A stretch of 64,000 nucleotides of DNA from an uncultured Verrucomicrobiae bacterium (GCA_963735805.1 CAVTMK010000002.1:64001-128000), one strand, 5' to 3'. Shown: positions 51,415-63,955, counted from the first letter of the stretch. Numbers and translations are program-made. Notes: generated by a model not told the origin, from the letters alone.

Positions 51415-52194
51415 TTAGTCGCGGATCAGGGGACGTAATTCTTTGTCTGATAACGAACGATAGCGGATTGCCCTACCGGCGTCACGCTCAAGCACTGCCG
51501 CCTCTATTCCCGCAATGGCAAGCTGTTCCTGTCGATGTTTGGTGACGGCAGCTCGCTCTGGTGGTTCCTTTGTATCGCTGGTCTGTAAAGTCATGTGCCC
51601 GATGCTCCACGCGTCGAGCGCCGAGTTCAATGCCGTCTCAAGGTTTGCGTCCGGCGCGTGCCGAGCGCCGAGAAATGTTTCCATTAACTCCCTTGATTGC
51701 TGTGTCCCGCTGAGCGCCGCGAAGTTCTGCCGCGCTTCCGCGAACGTTGCACCATTCGTCGCGATCTCACCGTCATACTCGACGCGTATAAATAAATCGT
51801 CTTCGGGTCGCTCTCCCACTTCAGCGAACAGCATCCGGGCGAGGTACGGCGCGCCGTAGATCTGTTCAAACGCGCTCTTCATCACCGGACTGAGCGAGTA
51901 ATGCACCAGCCGCCGCAGTGAAACATCTGTGGAAGATCGGGTGAATCCTTCGGTGCTGGCCAGTTCGATCGCCGCCATTCGCAAGCGCTCGATATCTCCT
52001 GGATGACCAATCGCGCCCATGGCGATTCGGTCGTAGATCTCAAAAATTTTCTGCCGCGTCTGACCGAGAGTGAGAAACAAAACACCGTCGCGGTAACCGA
52101 GCGCAGCAATCGGGCTGCCCGGAGCAAGTTGCGATTCGATGTACTCGCGGCGATTGGCGATCGCCTCGACCCAACGATACGGTTCTTCAATCAT
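51415..52194 (-). CDS. prcA: 20S proteasome alpha subunit (UBact-associated type)
   Basis: EPYRW..A...RREY, KIFEIYDRIAMGAIG; 4-bp overlap with the beta gene. Confidence 0.85.
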   Translation of the reverse strand: MIEEPYRWVEAIANRREYIESQLAPGSPIAALGYRDGVLFLTLGQTRQKIFEIYDRIAMGAIGHPGDIERLRMAAIELASTEGFTRSSTDVSLRRLVHYSLSPVMKSAFEQIYGAPYLARMLFAEVGERPEDDLFIRVEYDGEIATNGATFAEARQNFAALSGTQQSRELMETFLGARHAPDANLETALNSALDAWSIGHMTLQTSDTKEPPERAAVTKHRQEQLAIAGIEAAVLERDAGRAIRYRSLSDKELRPLIRD

Positions 52195-53015
52195 GCAACC
52201 GTTTCCTTGAACACCGCCGCGATTTTAGCTTCAGGCAAAGTCGTGATGCCTTCGCTCGATACAATCTTGATAAGCGGATAAATTTTGCCACTGCGATCTA
52301 CGCCGCCTGTCGATGTGTCGGATTCCGCTGCGGTATCCAATGCGCGCAACGCAACCGTTACCGCTTCTTCTTCGTTCAATTCGTGCAGCGGCTTCGCGCC
52401 CCAATTGTTTTCGTAATAGAGAATGCCGCGGACCGCTGGCGATCCGGACCCCGTGGCCGCGTAATCCGTCACTTCAAATTGCGCTCCCATCGCATCATAA
52501 AAATAAAGGCGCGCCTCCGGCCTCGGATGAGGATTGTAGGTCGCGAAAATTGGCACAACTATTCCCACGCCCTGCATGACGAACCCGAAATTGTCACGCA
52601 ACAATTTGGATAGAGCGCGTACTTTCCCATCGACGCTCATTTCCTGTAGCTGCGTTCGGCGAAAATATTGGAACGAGTGTTCGAGCACGCGCGCCATTTC
52701 CCACGCAGTGGCTGGCACACCAGCAATGGCCATGATCGAATTCCGATCGATTTCCAAAACTTTGTCCGCGCGATCATATACAACGGTATTCCCAGCCGTG
52801 GCGCGGCGGTCGCCTGCTACCAACACGCCTCCGGAAAATTTGAAGGCGAGAATTGTGGTTGCCTCGGTTGGTTGCCAGATTTTTTGCGGGGTTTCCGTTT
52901 GCGGTAGCGGATTCGCAGCAGCCGGGGTCAGCAAACCTCTGCGACGCAACAGCGCAGGAAAATCGCCGGATGCGCCAGAAAAATTCTGGTCAAACGCCAC
53001 CGGGGAGCGCTCCAT
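52191..53015 (-). CDS. prcB: 20S proteasome beta subunit with propeptide
   Basis: A/TTILA catalytic Thr, GDRRATAG, DKV, TGSGS, D..TGG. Confidence 0.9.
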   Translation of the reverse strand: MERSPVAFDQNFSGASGDFPALLRRRGLLTPAAANPLPQTETPQKIWQPTEATTILAFKFSGGVLVAGDRRATAGNTVVYDRADKVLEIDRNSIMAIAGVPATAWEMARVLEHSFQYFRRTQLQEMSVDGKVRALSKLLRDNFGFVMQGVGIVVPIFATYNPHPRPEARLYFYDAMGAQFEVTDYAATGSGSPAVRGILYYENNWGAKPLHELNEEEAVTVALRALDTAAESDTSTGGVDRSGKIYPLIKIVSSEGITTLPEAKIAAVFKETVA

Positions 53016-53191
53016 TATTGGCCGGTGCGCTGGCGATAGCGCTTGGATTGGTTGGGATCCACCTTGCGCATCTTTTTTAAAAGATCCTTCGTGTCCGGCC
53101 GCGAAATGTCCGGTGAACGTGGACCGCCACCATCGCCTTGTTTTGGACCCCACGGGGCCGGTTCCACCGGCTTCTGAATGCGCTCAGGCAT
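53015..53191 (-). CDS. ubact: Ubiquitin-like protein UBact (58 aa, ends RYRQRTGQ)
   Basis: Disordered N-terminus, LLKKMRKVDP...RYRQRTGQ C-terminus; TAA overlaps ATG of the proteasome beta gene. Confidence 0.88.
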   Translation of the reverse strand: MPERIQKPVEPAPWGPKQGDGGGPRSPDISRPDTKDLLKKMRKVDPNQSKRYRQRTGQ

Positions 53192-54486: not shown

Positions 54487-56298
54487 TCAGCAAACCGGCA
54501 GTTGTTCCTCTGTCTCGGTCGTCTGTGAAGCGCCAATCTCCGACGGCTGCTCGGTTTCCCGTGGCGGCGATGTTTGGAGCAAACTTTGCTGACATAGCCG
54601 CGCATATTTACCACCGAGCGCCAGCAATTGATCGTGTGTGCCGCGCTCGATGATCCTGCCATGATCGATTACCAGAATTTGGTCCGCATGCACAATCGTG
54701 GAAAGGCGATGCGCGATGACAATCGACGTGCGGTTCGCCATCAAGCGCTCCAGCGCTTCCTGGATTAAGCGTTCAGTTGCCGTGTCTACACTTGCAGTCG
54801 CTTCGTCGAGAATCAAAATCGGAGGATCCTTCAAAAGCGCACGCGCAATAGAGAGCCGTTGTTTTTCGCCGACGCTCAGTTTCACTCCACGCTCGCCCAC
54901 GACGCTTTCCAGTCCATCGGGCAAACGTTGAATAAATTGCTGGGCGTTTGCCGCAACCACTGCACGCCATAATTCACCGTCGGTCGCCTGCGGTTTTCCC
55001 ATGAGCAGGTTTTCGCGAATCGATCCATTAAACAAAAAGCTTTCCTGTGTGACTACGCCGATTGCTTCTCGCAACACATGCAGGTCATATTCGCGAATCG
55101 GTTTCGCATCGATATAGATTTGCCCAGTGGTGAATTCATAAAAACGCACGAGCAAATTCACCAGTGTCGACTTACCGGCGCCGGTTGCGCCCACCAGAGC
55201 GATAGTCGCGCCGGGCGGCGCGTGAAACGAAACATTCCTCAGCGCGGGCAATCCCTCCGCGTAACTGAAGCTCACGTTTTCGTAGCGAATGTCGCCTAGA
55301 ACTCGCCTGCCACCGCGGTCAACGCCCACGACTGCAAATCCGGGCTCCGCCGGTTCGTCGAGAATTTCAAATACGCGCTCGCCCGCCGCGCGTCCGGCTT
55401 GCACGAGTTGATTGAGCTGATGCAATCTGCCCAGAGGATCGTAGAGGAACGCAGTCAGGATTAGAAACGCGACCAGATCGCCGATTTGCATTGCACCCGT
55501 AAGCACTGCGTGACTGCCAAAGCCGAGTACCAGCAACGCGCCAATCGCTTCAAACAGCGACATCGACGGGCTGTAAATCGCCCATACCCGCATCACTACG
55601 AGTGTAGCCCGTCGCAAATGGTCGCTTACCCGATTAAACCGCGCGTGCTCCTCGTTCTCGCGTACGAAACTTTTGATCTGCCGGACGCCGGACAGATTAT
55701 CGTGCAATAGCGCGTTCATGTCTGACGAGGCCCGACGTTGCAAACGATACCGCCGATGCGCGGTTAGCGTGTACGTGAGCGTGCCGGCGATAAGCAGCGG
55801 GAATGGCGCGAGGGCGAGCATGGCGAGCTTCGCATTCAAATAAAACATCATGCCCACGACAATCAGGACCTGCAGAATGGCGACGACGCCTTGCTCGATT
55901 CCGTCGATCAAGACGCGCTCGACGGAGTTAACGTCCTCAATCACGCGCGTCATCAGATCGCCAGTGGCGCGATTGTCGAACCACCGCAAAGGCAGCAGCT
56001 GAATGTGAGAATACAAATCGCTGCGCAAATCGAAGATCACTTTTTGTTCAAACGTGTTGTTTAGGATGATGCGCAGCGCATTGAACCCGTGCTGAAAAAT
56101 AAATGCGATCCCTGCAAGAACGAGTAACGGCAGTAATTTGTCCGGCCGGTGCGCGCGTACAACGTCGTTAATGATCCATTTCGCTGTCGCAGGGAAGACA
56201 ATGACCATCAGCGTGCTCAAGACCGCGCAGCTCAATGTCCCTGCAGCCATCCAGGGATATCGCTTCAAATAAGCAAAAACGCGCCAGACAGTTCTCAT
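54487..56298 (-). CDS. ABC transporter ATP-binding/permease (MsbA-like exporter)
   Basis: TMD plus GATGAGKST, LSVGEKQR, ILDEATASVD, IAHRLST. Confidence 0.94.
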   Translation of the reverse strand: MRTVWRVFAYLKRYPWMAAGTLSCAVLSTLMVIVFPATAKWIINDVVRAHRPDKLLPLLVLAGIAFIFQHGFNALRIILNNTFEQKVIFDLRSDLYSHIQLLPLRWFDNRATGDLMTRVIEDVNSVERVLIDGIEQGVVAILQVLIVVGMMFYLNAKLAMLALAPFPLLIAGTLTYTLTAHRRYRLQRRASSDMNALLHDNLSGVRQIKSFVRENEEHARFNRVSDHLRRATLVVMRVWAIYSPSMSLFEAIGALLVLGFGSHAVLTGAMQIGDLVAFLILTAFLYDPLGRLHQLNQLVQAGRAAGERVFEILDEPAEPGFAVVGVDRGGRRVLGDIRYENVSFSYAEGLPALRNVSFHAPPGATIALVGATGAGKSTLVNLLVRFYEFTTGQIYIDAKPIREYDLHVLREAIGVVTQESFLFNGSIRENLLMGKPQATDGELWRAVVAANAQQFIQRLPDGLESVVGERGVKLSVGEKQRLSIARALLKDPPILILDEATASVDTATERLIQEALERLMANRTSIVIAHRLSTIVHADQILVIDHGRIIERGTHDQLLALGGKYARLCQQSLLQTSPPRETEQPSEIGASQTTETEEQLPVC

Positions 56299-56502
56299 TG
56301 CGCACTCAACCTCAACGCCCGCGTCATCGCGTCAAGCTAAGTACCCAGCATGCTTTGTGTGCGTGTCCTTCGATGCGCTTCGTACTGCTACTTGATACTG
56401 CTTGACCGGGCCTCTGCCATCAATTTACCTTCCAATTGCCGTGACGCGGTCGTTTCCTCTCGACGCCGCAGCAGCACACACTTTGTTAGATTGTCGAAAA
56501 GG

Positions 56503-58926
56503 GTGAACGCCCAAAGCACGTCCGCGGAGACTGAACCAGATCTTCCGCTTGAGATCGCATACTTATTGCTAATCGACGTTGTTGGTTACTCGAAATTGTT
56601 GGTCAATGAGCAGGTCGAACTGCTGCAGCAACTGAACCGGATCGTGCGGAGCACCGAATGTTTTCGCGCGGCGGAAGCAGTCGGCAAGCTCATCCGGGTG
56701 CCAACGGGCGATGGGATGGCACTTCTTTTCTTTCACAGTCCGGAGGAACCGGTGCGGTGCGCCCTCGAGATCAGCAAAGCGTTAAAGGGTCATTCGCAGA
56801 TCCAGGTACGCATGGGAGTTCACAGTGGTCCAGTCAACCCGGTGAAGGATGTTAACGACCAAACGAATATTGCTGGATCGGGGATCAATGTGGGGCAGCG
56901 GGTGCTGGACTGCGGCGATGCTGGACACATCCTTGTATCGGGTCATGTCGCAGAGGATTTGTCTCAGTATCGACATTGGCAGCCGTATCTAAGCAATCTG
57001 GGCGAGTGCCAGGTAAAGCACGGACTGCGCCTGCACGTGTTTAATCTGTGTAAAGATGGTCTCGGTAATCCGGAGGTTCCTGAGAAACTCAAGCGGCGAA
57101 GATGGACGCAGCAATCCGCCGCGATTCACCCAGTCGGTCCGTCTCGGTGGCCAAAGTTTCTATTGCCAGTCGCTCTAGCTGTGTTCGCCGTCGGGTTGGC
57201 GCTCGCCATTTCAGTCTTTCTTCGTCAGGGAACACATACTGGTAATTACTCGGACGCTACAACATCCATTGCCGAGAAAAGCGTCGCCGTGTTGCCCTTC
57301 GAAAATCTAAGTACGGATCGGGAAAACGCCTTCTTCACCGATGGTGTACAGGATGAAATCCTTACCGACCTCTCCAAAGTCGCGGACCTGAAAGTAATCA
57401 GTCGCACGAGTGTGATGCAGTACAGGAACGCCGCAGCGCGCAACCTCAGGGAGATTGCCCAGCAACTCGGCGTCGCGCACGTGTTAGAAGGAAGTGTGCA
57501 GCGTGCGGGGAACCGTGTCCGCGTAACCGCACAGCTGATTGACGCCAGGACCGACACGCATCTTTGGGCGGAACGGTACGACCGCGATCTAGCGGATGTC
57601 TTCGCCATTCAGAGTGAGATTGCCAAGAAGATCGCGGACCAGCTTCAGGCTAAAATTTCTCCCAGTGAAAAGGCGGCGATCGAGAAGGCACCTACCACCG
57701 ATCTTCTCGCATACGATCTTTATCTGCGCGCCGAGCTACTTTTCGCCGATACAACCGATCCGATTCATGCCAGGGAAAAACTGCCTCAGGCGGCGCAATT
57801 GTTAGATGAAGCGGTAACACGCGACCCGCGCTTCTTACAGGCTTGGTGCCTGCTGTCCAGAGTACATTGCGCCGCTTATTTTAGAGGTCATGACCATAGC
57901 ACGGCCCGTCTCGAGCTGGCCAATGCGGCCGTCCAAACCGCGTTGCGCCTTCAACCGGATGCCGGTGAAGCCCATCTTGCTCTGGCCATTTATTACTACA
58001 ACGGTTTTCGCGATTACCGCCGGGCCCGCAGCGAGCTCGCCTTTGCCAGACGGACATTGCCGAACAACTCCGATGTGTTCTTTTACACCGGCTTGATTGA
58101 TCGCCGCGAAGGTCGTTGGGAAGAAGCGACGCGCGACATGGAGCGCGCTCTTGAGCTGGACCCACGCAACTTCTTTATTTTACAGCAACTGGCTTTGACC
58201 TATCAGCCGCAGCGTCGGTATACCGACGAAGCTCAAACGTATGATCGTGCACTGACGATCATGCCGGCCGATCCCTATACTCGTATATCCAGAGCGTTGG
58301 TTGCCTTGGATTGGCGTGCAGACATCCAACCGTTCCAGACGACGCTGGCTACATTGATCACTGAAAATCCCAACGCTGCGCCCGATTTAGATGCTCCTCT
58401 TTATGCTCTGTGCGAGCGTACTGCGGCCGCCACTGACAGGACGCTGTCAAACTATCCGCGGGTGGGGGTCGTATACAACGGAGTCAACTACCCCCATGCA
58501 TATTGGGAGGGGGTCGTTGCTCGCTGCCAAGGCGATTCAGCCAAAGCGCGCGCTGCCTTTACCGCGGCGCGCAGAGAAGTCGCAAACACAGTGGAACAGC
58601 AGCCTGACTTCGCGGCCGCTCTTAGTGTGCTGGGCATGATCGATGCGGGCCTCGATCGTAAAGAAGAAGCACTAAAGGAAGGTCGACGCGCGTGCGAATT
58701 GTTGCCGGTCTCCAAGGATGCTATCGACGGTGCATCCCTGGCCATTAATCTGGCGCAGATTTACGCCTGGACTGGCGAGAAAGACCGCGCCATCGAGCAG
58801 ATCGCCGCCGTGGAGCGCGTCCCGAACACTCTCAGCTATGGCCTTCTGAAGCTGCATCCTTACTGGGATTCGCTGCGCGGCGATCCCCGCTTCGAAAAAA
58901 TTATCGCTTCTCTCGCGCCGCAGTGA
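56503..58926 (+). CDS. Class III nucleotidyl cyclase - TM - TolB-like - TPR protein
   Basis: IDVVGYSK, TGDG, RMGVHSGPV, GIN..QRV; SVAVLPFENLS, KVISRTSV; TPRs; LRGDPRF. Confidence 0.88.
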   Translation: MNAQSTSAETEPDLPLEIAYLLLIDVVGYSKLLVNEQVELLQQLNRIVRSTECFRAAEAVGKLIRVPTGDGMALLFFHSPEEPVRCALEISKALKGHSQIQVRMGVHSGPVNPVKDVNDQTNIAGSGINVGQRVLDCGDAGHILVSGHVAEDLSQYRHWQPYLSNLGECQVKHGLRLHVFNLCKDGLGNPEVPEKLKRRRWTQQSAAIHPVGPSRWPKFLLPVALAVFAVGLALAISVFLRQGTHTGNYSDATTSIAEKSVAVLPFENLSTDRENAFFTDGVQDEILTDLSKVADLKVISRTSVMQYRNAAARNLREIAQQLGVAHVLEGSVQRAGNRVRVTAQLIDARTDTHLWAERYDRDLADVFAIQSEIAKKIADQLQAKISPSEKAAIEKAPTTDLLAYDLYLRAELLFADTTDPIHAREKLPQAAQLLDEAVTRDPRFLQAWCLLSRVHCAAYFRGHDHSTARLELANAAVQTALRLQPDAGEAHLALAIYYYNGFRDYRRARSELAFARRTLPNNSDVFFYTGLIDRREGRWEEATRDMERALELDPRNFFILQQLALTYQPQRRYTDEAQTYDRALTIMPADPYTRISRALVALDWRADIQPFQTTLATLITENPNAAPDLDAPLYALCERTAAATDRTLSNYPRVGVVYNGVNYPHAYWEGVVARCQGDSAKARAAFTAARREVANTVEQQPDFAAALSVLGMIDAGLDRKEEALKEGRRACELLPVSKDAIDGASLAINLAQIYAWTGEKDRAIEQIAAVERVPNTLSYGLLKLHPYWDSLRGDPRFEKIIASLAPQ

Positions 58927-59986
58927 CAGGGAGACCGACTCCGGCAACGTAAAGTACCGACTCGCGGATCCCATCTATCCCCAGGTCCTTTTCGATTTGT
59001 GTGTCCTGCAGCGCCGCCGTGCAAAATGGAGCAAGCCCCAACCAGGTTGCTACCAGACAGAACGTCTGGCACAGGTGCCCCGCATCTAGGAGCACGACGC
59101 GATAAGCCCGAGGGTGGTGATACTTCCACATGGTACGCGGAAACACTGCCGTCATTAAAAATAAAGCAGCCGCTTTTCTGACGAAGTGTTGGCGTGCACA
59201 GTACAGCCATGCCTTTTCGTGTGAGGCGTTCGTGCTGATCGTCTCCAGACGGTGCGCTAACGGATGGTAGTGGTACAGACCTGCTTTCAGACCGTTGACG
59301 CGCAACGCCATTAAATACACTTCGCCCGCGTGCCGGGCACCACCCGACGGGCTGGTTTTATGAAATAACCTCCCAAACCGGGGAGAGTCCCGATAACCGG
59401 TAACACCCCAAACCAGTGAGAGAAGTTGGGATACGGTTTCAAGTGGCACTTTTTTATTCGAGAATCGCCGATAAGTCTTTCTTGCCATCAATACTCGGAC
59501 AAACTCGGAGTCTGGAAAAACGCGCTGTGGTAGCGATTTTCTTTTGGCGCCTCTGACAGTCTGGGAAAATTTAGGCTGCGGTGTCTTCGGTGCGATCGAT
59601 TTCAGCCTGCTGAGACTCCAATTAGTCCGGTCCAGGTACGGTGTATTCTTTGTGGAGAAATGGAAACTTCCTTCAGGCAGCCACGAGGCCCATGCCTGTG
59701 CGATCCGACTGTCGTGCTCTGCTTGGGGGGAGCCTTTCCGAAGGATCAGCCCATATCGGAGCAACTGAGAAAGCGCGGAACGCACACTCGCCTGGGTGTA
59801 ATCGGCAAAATGAGCGAATGTTTCCCGGGACGTTCGCCAACTGTCAAAGAACGAAAGAACTTCGCACGTAATCGGCTTCCCTAAGACGGTCAGACGTTTG
59901 GCGAAATTGTGAAAATGCAGCTGACCGTTCTGCCAGTAAACGAACAAGCACCTGGCTCGTCGTAAGGGGATCGTTTGCTCCCGCAT
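58901..59986 (-). CDS. SagB/ThcOx-type FMN-dependent peptide dehydrogenase with N-terminal RRE-like domain
   Basis: ARKTYRRF, KTSPSGGARH..EVY, GLYHY, MWKY (Lys-Tyr), YR..LLDAGHL.QT; N-terminal 3-strand/3-helix pattern. Confidence 0.88.
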   Translation of the reverse strand: MREQTIPLRRARCLFVYWQNGQLHFHNFAKRLTVLGKPITCEVLSFFDSWRTSRETFAHFADYTQASVRSALSQLLRYGLILRKGSPQAEHDSRIAQAWASWLPEGSFHFSTKNTPYLDRTNWSLSRLKSIAPKTPQPKFSQTVRGAKRKSLPQRVFPDSEFVRVLMARKTYRRFSNKKVPLETVSQLLSLVWGVTGYRDSPRFGRLFHKTSPSGGARHAGEVYLMALRVNGLKAGLYHYHPLAHRLETISTNASHEKAWLYCARQHFVRKAAALFLMTAVFPRTMWKYHHPRAYRVVLLDAGHLCQTFCLVATWLGLAPFCTAALQDTQIEKDLGIDGIRESVLYVAGVGLPVTAAREKR

Positions 59987-60041
59987 TCGTTTCGATTGAC
60001 GCAATAGAGCTACAGCAAAGCACTAAACTCGTCGTACAACT

Positions 60042-60218
60042 TCACTTCACATGATGCGGATCGCCAGCGATTTGACGAAGACACTCTTCAGCCTCGCACA
60101 CCAGCTTTGAAAGATCTTTTAATGGAGCTCGCTTAGCTTTCTCAAGATCCTTCAGAGCTTTTTTTGCGAGCGCGGTAATTTTCAACTTATTTTTACAAGA
60201 TTTTATATGCTTAGGCAC
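60042..60218 (-). CDS. Putative RiPP precursor peptide (58 aa, ends CEAEECLRQIAGDPHHVK)
   Basis: GTG start 7 nt after perfect AGGAGGT; directly upstream of and co-oriented with the RRE-SagB gene. Confidence 0.65.
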   Translation of the reverse strand: MPKHIKSCKNKLKITALAKKALKDLEKAKRAPLKDLSKLVCEAEECLRQIAGDPHHVK

Positions 60219-60243
60219 GGTTGTTACCTCCTGTCCGAGCAAC

Positions 60244-60314
60244 GAAGCTACTCTGGATATCCAGTGCTTCAGAGCTATTCTTGCAGCGTAATCGGTGAGC
60301 TAATTGAATGTCAA
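60244..60314 (-). promoter_or_regulatory. Promoter plus palindrome upstream of the peptide gene
   Basis: TTGACA-N18-TACGCT; perfect palindrome CTGGATATCCAG (60253-60264) inside a GAAGC...GCTTC stem. Confidence 0.55.
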
Positions 60315-60413
60315 CATCCATGCTCTTTCACTCAACAATTAATCGCCGCTTTCCATGGATCGCGCCTAACGAAACGAGTCTTGCTCTCAACGACAGTGCG
60401 CTAACCTTGCCAG

Positions 60414-63455: not shown

Positions 63456-63955
63456 ATGCACACGTTGCTTGATCACGAAAAGCTGGAAGTTTATCAAACC
63501 TCGCTTGAGTTCATCACATGGACCGTCCATTTGTTGGAAGACTTGCCCGGGAAGGCTGCCGTTCGCAACCAGCTTGATCGTGCCTCGACGTCGGTTCCCT
63601 TGAACATTGCTGAGGGAAACGGGAAGTTCACGTCTCTCGATCGCTGTCGATTCTTCGATAACGCGCGCGGTTCCGCGCTGGAATCAGCCGGGTGTCTCGA
63701 TGTGATAGTCGCAAAAAAGTTCGTTAGTGCGACTGAAGTGCAAGTGGTAAGGCAATGCTCGTGAAAATTGTGTTAATGCTATTCGGACTGATTCGGGCAA
63801 ATTCTGACGTGCGGATTTTCGAAGAGCCAAGTCGCTATCGCCGCGCAATGTCACAGAAAAAGGAAGGTAAGAGCAGGAATAAGAATACGAATAGGAGGTC
63901 GGATCCAATCACCACTGAATTGCGCGCGTGCGGGTTGCGCTTCAAAGGTTGGTAA
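63456..63955 (+). pseudogene. Four-helix-bundle protein (23S rRNA IVS/Avd-like), frameshifted
   Basis: HEKLEVYQ, QLDRASTSVPLNIAEG, ARGSALE; final helix GKAMLVKIVLMLFGLIR lies in another frame near 63745. Confidence 0.8.
63869..63898 (-). repeat. Inverted hexamer tandem repeat at the 3' end of the four-helix-bundle gene
   Basis: aagagc aggaat aagaat acgaat aggagg. Confidence 0.7.

Follow-up and report, generated by a model that had tools for sequence, protein, structure and literature searches.

SagB-type flavoproteins are the textbook partners of YcaO cyclodehydratases, so a SagB-type gene that stands beside a small peptide gene, with no YcaO gene at hand, raises the question of what its product acts on. 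The case studied here lies in a 64,000-nucleotide stretch of DNA, hereafter the window, from an uncultured soil bacterium of the Verrucomicrobiae (GCA_963735805.1, CAVTMK010000002.1:64001-128000). The peptide gene and the SagB-type enzyme gene are both on the minus strand, with the peptide gene upstream of the enzyme gene, and a gene for a sensor-like membrane protein converges on them from the plus strand. We predict that these three genes form a YcaO-independent peptide-modification module that resembles the systems of RiPPs (peptides that the ribosome makes and that are modified after translation), and that they represent a divergent, unannotated branch of the family described by the models TIGR04509 (NHLP-related RiPP peptide), TIGR04510 (putative peptide modification system cyclase) and TIGR04511 (putative peptide maturation dehydrogenase). 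We give this reading a probability of about 0.62. A literature search, with subscription journals and supplements outside its coverage, found no description of the module.

The features of the locus are listed below. The enzyme is divided into a domain that resembles a RiPP recognition element (RRE), a linker and an oxidase domain that binds flavin mononucleotide (FMN).

60285..60314, minus strand: possible promoter, TTGACA (60314->60309), 18 nucleotides, TACGCT (60290->60285)
60226..60232, minus strand: Shine-Dalgarno sequence AGGAGGT, 7 nucleotides ahead of the GTG start
60042..60218, minus strand: precursor-like peptide gene, coding sequence 60218->60045, stop codon 60042-60044; 58 residues, GTG start read as M
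59687..59986, minus strand: RRE-like winged helix, predicted, enzyme residues 1-100 (four strands, three helices, a strand and a helix)
59507..59686, minus strand: conserved linker, enzyme residues 101-160, from the homologue alignment and an AlphaFold2 model
58901..59506, minus strand: SagB-type FMN nitroreductase-fold oxidase domain, enzyme residues 161-361 and stop codon
56350..58926, plus strand: convergent membrane protein, 858 residues, with Pfam and NCBIfam domains

The peptide and its tail

Related loci were gathered and examined by script (n = 90: nine contigs of reference genomes, 80 metagenome contigs and one genome of the same family). Eighty-six of these are of verrucomicrobial type; seven with less than 260 nucleotides of upstream sequence were set aside and 79 were counted, while the four gammaproteobacterial loci were handled apart. 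A co-oriented small open reading frame (ORF) ends within 110 nucleotides of the enzyme start in 78 of the 79, as the original prediction had expected of homologous loci. The proximal peptide carries Asp-x-His (D-x-H) within its last 12 residues at 68 of the 79 loci, compared with 36 of 3973 control ORFs (0.9%), the controls being the other small ORFs of the same loci. The ending whose conservation had been named as a check, (G)DPH-like, is kept in this wider form: between Asp and His, 38 of the 68 have P, 20 have N, six have H, two have R and one each has D and V, and in 62 a K, H or R comes after the His. The peptide gene is conserved and genuinely linked to that of the enzyme.

The loci that depart from this pattern do so in several ways. 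Three (L034, L047 and L063) hold what look like frameshifted copies of the same peptide. Their N-terminal part is normal and their C-terminal frame is shifted (L034:3833-3979, L047:2637-2801 and L063:35-238), by assembly errors or as decaying copies. In L090 the motif lies 14 residues from the end, L010 has a distal D-P-H peptide only, L045 has no proximal ORF, and L035, L038, L079, L092 and L095 have other tails. A second D-P-H peptide is found 350-550 nucleotides upstream in 11 loci.

An alignment of 49 peptides took in that of the window, two relatives from the database, three distal paralogues and, after a redundancy cut, 43 out of 62 distinct peptides in the proximal position. D53 and H55 alone are invariant in it, and they remain so where the peptide bodies are down to 18-42% identity; M1 and the heptad-like hydrophobic positions A18, A21, L36, L40, L47 and I50 are near-invariant. 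The tails of the aligned peptides have no conserved Cys, Ser or Thr, and the peptides have no conserved Gln. The window peptide itself (MPKHIK...IAGDPHHVK) has two amphipathic helices followed by the tail I-A-G-D-P-H-H-V-K, and carries three Cys. The C40/C45 pair and the duplicated LKDL, which had been put forward as features of the system, turn out to be peculiar to this copy and its closest relatives.

Pfam and NCBIfam offer no family match for the peptide, an Atlas search gave only sub-threshold, unrelated leads of the YafQ/YoeB type, and a word-index search returned only three close relatives; the close homologues are 83-91% identical. In the host genome (3.52 Mb in four contigs, 94.4% complete) there are 45,770 small ORFs, of which a peptide hidden Markov model and the tail motif each match this one alone, which is not chance. 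The sole peptide gene of this kind in the genome adjoins its sole SagB-type gene.

The small gene had been located correctly on the minus strand, together with its AGGAGGT ribosome-binding site, its AT-rich composition (GC 0.42-0.43 over the gene against about 0.50-0.60 around it) and its spacing of 55 nucleotides from the co-oriented enzyme gene. The promoter that had been proposed for it fared less well. The sequence TTGACA-18-TACGCT is present and its -35 element is perfect, but the -10 element agrees with TATAAT at three of six positions. A promoter scan does not list the sequence, and found two sites against 1.0 +/- 1.0 in shuffled sequence. Given the weak -10, its absence from the scan list and the lack of an excess over shuffles, this promoter is therefore no better than chance.

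Contigs identical to the window were also found in metatranscriptomes. One covers 60041-60238 with 0 differences, and thus the entire peptide gene and its ribosome-binding site, at a word depth of 12.6; another covers 59914-60124 with 0 mismatches, from the 3' end of the peptide gene across the spacer into the 5' end of the enzyme gene, at a word depth of 52.5. A further contig, X20 (60261-60400), is uninformative, and stretches of the window that no RNA contig covers carry no meaning. We take these contigs as a hint of expression and not as proof, because they show neither strand nor transcript ends and RNA libraries can hold DNA.

The same pairing is seen in other subfamilies of the enzyme. 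Each of the four gammaproteobacterial loci (enzyme identity 46-53%) has a co-oriented upstream helical peptide of 63-74 residues, and the tails of these are NIHNHKADPDDGK, NIHNHKPDP..., KIPWFKPYIDKK and IAAHLPTFSK. One of them can be aligned with the verrucomicrobial profile, His against His (hhalign E 1.8e-4, probability 48%). Among 401 sampled Pseudomonadota genomes, 15 gave a match at E <= 1e-45. Of the four best new matches of full length, three (L141-L143) are preceded by a conserved peptide of 31 residues that ends in GMHYNKR, which is a further candidate precursor family. This peptide (MAKKV...FFSQGMHYNKR; L141:1348-1443, L142:1338-1433, L143:1338-1433) lies beside an XRE-type helix-turn-helix (HTH) gene. 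Relatives of TIGR04511 and of Os1351, a Pseudomonas protein described below, adjoin peptides of the NHLP clan. Across subfamilies the tails have little in common except a His or aromatic residue with basic residues after it. Every subfamily of the enzyme has a small peptide of its own, which is the pattern of precursor and maturase pairs.

The enzyme and the absence of a cyclodehydratase

The enzyme lies in an open frame at 58901..60004 on the minus strand. The aligned homologues all begin at the ATG at 59986 (MREQTI...), so the enzyme has 361 residues and the gap to the peptide gene is 55 nucleotides. It matches the Pfam Nitroreductase family (PF00881, E 3.5e-17) and TIGR03605, the SagB family peptide dehydrogenases, at 122.7 bits against a cut-off of 78.4, in agreement with the nitroreductase fold that had been predicted. 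Its best NCBIfam match is TIGR04511, at 189.1 bits and under the cut-off of 240. When the whole library was searched with the enzyme by HMMER, 10,683 representatives passed E <= 1e-3 and 509 remained at E <= 1e-30; many of these match over their whole length, with 33-51% identity. For the alignment used below we took the window enzyme, 87 near full-length sequences from the 150 representatives listed, five close homologues and five locus proteins (98 in total).

The oxidase domain carries R169, S-P-S-G-G and W287-K288-Y289. Across the 98 homologues R169 is conserved in 100%, S-P-S-G-G in 84-100%, Y289 in 99% and K288 in 66%. The Lys-Tyr motif near the flavin is a functional motif of SagB-type oxidases. 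The FMN-binding residues and the Lys-Tyr motif of the azoline oxidases SagB, McbC, ThcOx and BmdC are therefore kept in the window enzyme, as had been noticed from its MWKY sequence. The N-terminal domain and the linker are conserved across the 98 homologues as well, with W99, W102 and H109 kept in at least 93%.

An AlphaFold2 model built from the 98-sequence alignment, which replaced a 15-sequence run (oxidase domain pLDDT 44.9), has a pLDDT of 92.3, and 79-98 in the block of the N-terminal domain. That domain is modelled as strands 8-10, 14-19, 22-27 and 32-36 followed by helices 38-46, 53-59 and 65-77, which agrees with the three strands and three helices that had been read from the sequence apart from one extra strand (8-10). 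The first approximately 100 residues are RRE-like by fold, as far as the model shows. VIA-align places model residues 2-361 on residues 109-473 of a ThcOx chain (Z 23.3) and residues 4-355 on residues 2-324 of a BmdC chain (Z 22.1), while McbC matches from residue 91 only; Foldseek ranks the same entries first (3eo7, ThcOx, BmdC and McbC being the PDB relatives), and the cyclodipeptide oxidase 8uc3 is among the structural matches with a Z of 17.0. Searches with the whole model are dominated by the oxidase domain. ThcOx (PDB 5lq4, 8pz5) and BmdC (7ly4) have the same fold and the same domain order, an RRE-like domain, a linker and an FMN oxidase domain. BmdC is described as having a wrapping loop between an RRE-like domain and its Ox domain, and ThcOx is said to have additional RRE copies (PMC8795117). 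The linker of the window enzyme would be comparable in position to the wrapping loop of BmdC. A language-model look-up of the N-terminal domain in Atlas returned the ThcOx HTH family PF22767 (0.87) and MftB (0.82), both under the 0.9 mark, and co-folding of an enzyme dimer with the peptide scored 0.10 against a mark of 0.32, a score that speaks neither for nor against the pairing.

No match to YcaO (PF02624) was found in the host genome or in any of five other carrier genomes, whose completeness is not given, and the controls matched as expected. The original prediction, that no YcaO or radical-SAM gene is next to the pair, therefore extends for YcaO to the genome; the nearest radical-SAM gene, of the MqnC/CofH type at 44.5 kb, is 14 kb from the locus. 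With no YcaO or other cyclodehydratase, and no conserved core of Cys, Ser or Thr, an azoline formed by the known route is excluded as the substrate.

What the enzyme would do instead can be proposed in outline. Its RRE-like domain would dock the helical leader part of the peptide, and its FMN domain would carry out a two-electron oxidation within the last approximately eight residues, at or beside the invariant His and Asp. Our preferred guess is a desaturation between the C-alpha and C-beta of His, or of an aromatic residue in other subfamilies. Cyclodipeptide oxidases of the nitroreductase fold carry out desaturation of this kind, and we favour it because of this analogy, 8uc3 being one of the structural matches.

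The module is patchily distributed across genomes. In an order-level sample, five of 101 genomes match the enzyme at E <= 0.001, with a near full-length match in one besides the host, and in a phylum sample of 301 genomes the host alone has a full-length match. Soil metagenomes are rich in the module, with at least 458 of 598 candidate stretches being relatives in one scan. The module is present in the Candidatus Udaeobacter lineage, which is among the most abundant soil bacteria.

The convergent membrane protein and rival readings

The third gene runs towards the enzyme gene and overlaps it by 26 nucleotides at its 3' end. It encodes, in order, a class III cyclase-homology domain, one transmembrane (TM) helix, a TolB_N/FlgO-like domain and TPR repeats. 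Orthologues align to it from residue 43-60, and the first approximately 45 codons (56350-56490) have no counterpart; the annotated ATG is thus probably not the true start, which may lie approximately 45 codons downstream. An orthologue, mostly at 73-84% identity, occupies the same convergent position in 67 of the 71 loci with at least 500 nucleotides of downstream sequence, and the four without it are the gammaproteobacterial loci. These have a kinase/TolB_N-like/TPR protein upstream and a winged HTH (wHTH)/kinase/TPR protein in the convergent position. The outer flanks vary, with FolB upstream in nine loci, an HIBADH-like gene in 23 and an FHA gene beyond the sensor in 15. In eight loci (L035, L045, L046, L052, L065, L067, L079 and L090) the TM/TolB_N-like/TPR part is kept but is preceded by a Ser/Thr kinase where the cyclase would stand. 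An ectodomain that stays constant while the cytoplasmic outputs can be exchanged is as expected of a sensor. We suggest that the protein is the sensor or regulator of the module, in which the periplasmic TolB_N-like/TPR part would be constant and the cytoplasmic cyclase or kinase could be exchanged. The earlier suggestion that the oxidase may act alone overlooks this conserved gene.

Several observations weigh against the three-gene module. The verrucomicrobial loci are mostly close kin (enzyme identity 65-78%), and because of this the locus counts are not independent and overstate the support. The D-x-H tail is not universal, being wanting in 11 of the 79 verrucomicrobial loci, and two of the four gammaproteobacterial peptides have no comparable His. 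Sequence searches with residues 1-105 of the enzyme, against Pfam at E up to 10 and against the PDB by phmmer, brought no match to an RRE family. The RRE of BmdC is described as a 'remnant' that does not bind a leader (PMC8795117), and the fold alone is therefore no proof of peptide binding. The RNA contigs, although found in two runs, come from a single study, and the caution about DNA in RNA libraries applies to them. There are approximately 25 loci with sensor paralogues in the host genome (31-60% identity), which makes adjacency to one of them less remarkable, and the 31-residue Pseudomonadota subfamily has no such sensor within 1.5 kb.

The last two of these points bear on the alternative that survives best, although we think it somewhat unlikely: that peptide and oxidase are the whole system, and that the sensor is merely a neighbour kept by inheritance and by the 26-nucleotide 3' overlap. 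So many paralogue loci in a 3.5-Mb genome, the close kinship of the related loci and a subfamily seen without such a neighbour in 1.5 kb would all fit it. Yet the gene in place at 67 of the 71 loci is the orthologue, at 73-84% identity where paralogues reach 31-60%, and both outer flanks change around it. The gammaproteobacterial relatives are flanked by proteins of a similar make, in which a kinase stands with TolB_N-like and TPR parts or with wHTH and TPR parts. The canonical cassette also includes TIGR04510, with the same domain order.

Rather less probable is that the small protein is real and partners the enzyme or the sensor without being a substrate. It might serve as an adaptor, an inhibitor or a regulator of the oxidase or of the cyclase/kinase, with the oxidase targeting a small molecule or another protein. 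A helical hairpin with heptad-like hydrophobics resembles a protein more than many RiPP leaders do, the module was found to contain no protease, exporter or cleavage motif (the ABC transporter of the window recurs at none of the 90 related loci), and BmdC, as described, shows that an RRE-like domain can persist without leader binding. The strongest constraint, however, falls on a short C-terminal tail and not on a folded core. Several peptide paralogues per locus and peptide families specific to each subfamily are typical of precursor and maturase pairs, and the conservation of the N-terminal domain and linker across the 98 homologues also speaks for a peptide substrate.

A bolder version of the modification module is a self-contained peptide signalling circuit of abundant soil Verrucomicrobia, for which the odds are poor. 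Here the oxidase would install a YcaO-independent modification not described before in the tail, e.g. an alpha,beta-dehydro-histidine in Asp-x-His, and the modified peptide would be the ligand or the regulated target of the adjacent sensor. If true, this would be a new RiPP class and a new peptide-sensor pairing, and it would account for the cyclase/kinase proteins that keep turning up, so far without explanation, next to peptide systems of the NHLP type (TIGR04510, TIGR03903).

An ordinary thiazole/oxazole (TOMM) pathway, with its YcaO encoded elsewhere, is very improbable. The enzyme does pass the SagB family model with its Lys-Tyr motif kept, and the window peptide has three Cys. Nevertheless, YcaO has no match in the 94.4% complete host genome or in five further carriers, and the peptide tails have no Cys, Ser or Thr in common. 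The shortness of the small ORF, its GTG start and its lack of a family match might suggest that it arose by chance within an AT-richer 5' leader of the enzyme gene. This can be practically dismissed: the Shine-Dalgarno sequence is perfect, RNA contigs cover the ORF, and 68 of 79 loci keep the frame, the M-P start and the tail motif, which compares with 0.9% of control ORFs.

Known relatives and surrounding genes

The predicted module has relatives, and the original claim of a system without precedent does not hold. The NCBIfam cassette TIGR04509/TIGR04510/TIGR04511 precedes it, and so does a preprint on the tiarins. The cassette, which is defined computationally and on which our literature search found no paper, is made up of the same kinds of part: its dehydrogenase is SagB-related and extended at the N-terminus, and is accompanied by a small peptide and by a cyclase/TM/TolB_N-like/TPR protein. 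Canonical TIGR04511 genes in two genomes stand with a TIGR04509 peptide and a TIGR04510 cyclase. There are also differences. True members of TIGR04511 score 454-548 bits, whereas the window enzyme stays at the sub-threshold score given above. TIGR04510 shares the domain order of the window sensor and 24% identity over 339 residues, but the model does not match the window sensor, and some relatives of the sensor reach approximately 32 bits against a cut-off of 400. TIGR04509 gives no match at E up to 10, either for the window peptide or for related peptides (17 related peptides in all). The canonical peptide is approximately 106 residues long, NHLP-like, on the opposite strand and unrelated to the window peptide (hhalign probability 0.7%), and the canonical cyclase gene is upstream and co-oriented, whereas the window sensor is convergent. 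Falling below all three cut-offs, with an unrelated peptide family, sets the locus apart from TIGR04509-04511. In the two canonical cassettes the gene for the NHLP-related peptide stands between those for the cyclase and the dehydrogenase, on the opposite strand (L108:7303-7635, plus strand; L109:5597-5917, minus strand).

For the tiarins, the preprint reports that RRE-fused SagB-type dehydrogenases define a RiPP family in which YcaO is accessory only (bioRxiv 10.64898/2025.12.02.691738). As described there, TfxB/TfxC have in common with the window system an RRE-fused SagB-type FMN dehydrogenase and an upstream precursor with a strong Shine-Dalgarno sequence. Tiarins need the TfxB and TfxC pair and a conserved core Gln, whereas the window has one enzyme gene and no conserved Gln; this comparison sets TfxB/TfxC against the window enzyme by their description only. 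In Pseudomonas sp. Os17, the cluster Os1348-1351 encodes a small peptide and a protein with a SagB-type dehydrogenase domain, and no sagC or sagD homologues were reported to be found (PMC7726476). It differs in a peptide of the NHLP clan (Os1348, NF038399), an extra GNAT protein and peptidase, and a much longer enzyme. We found that a 650-residue Os1351-like protein beside a NodT-like gene matches positions 23-355 of the enzyme-family profile. Judging from the tiarins, the Os17 cluster (both as described) and the NCBIfam cassette, SagB-type systems in which YcaO is dispensable or unfound are therefore already known in outline. TOMM, cyanobactin and non-ribosomal peptide synthetase azoline oxidases differ in their setting from the locus, which has neither a cyclodehydratase nor a conserved core of Cys, Ser or Thr. 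New here are a peptide family that no model covers and whose tail carries D-x-H, and a convergent sensor whose outputs are swapped.

Among stand-alone RRE-fused SagB-type enzymes, the tiarins are the first worked example. The locus described here offers a minimal test case, with one peptide that has a two-residue invariant motif, one enzyme and no other maturase. The swapping of sensor output domains also provides a concrete hypothesis for why cyclase/kinase proteins accompany such peptide systems.

The sensor paralogues of the host genome deserve mention in their own right, as they are an unusual expansion of one architecture for a 3.5-Mb genome. Their loci include C2:562805-580334, C2:449453-455370 and C4:272225-276857, with cyclase or other N-terminal domains and some tandem arrays. 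Among the enzyme homologues, one protein of 786 residues (P0164) joins a counterpart of the entire enzyme to an MFS transporter, which hints at export of at least some products.

The window genes from 43.5 to 64 kb are housekeeping genes. Those within 15 kb of the locus encode BamA, Skp, an amidase, proteasome-like subunits, FolB, a NUDIX protein, TatC and a prepilin peptidase. An MsbA-like ABC transporter at 54487-56298 was considered as an exporter for the module and rejected, on the count of related loci given above. Two adjacent genes at 51415-53153 on the minus strand encode Pfam Proteasome subunits of 259 and 320 residues, which are bacterial proteasome homologues in a Verrucomicrobium. 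The gene at 63456-63764 on the plus strand belongs to the '23S rRNA-intervening sequence protein' family (PF05635).

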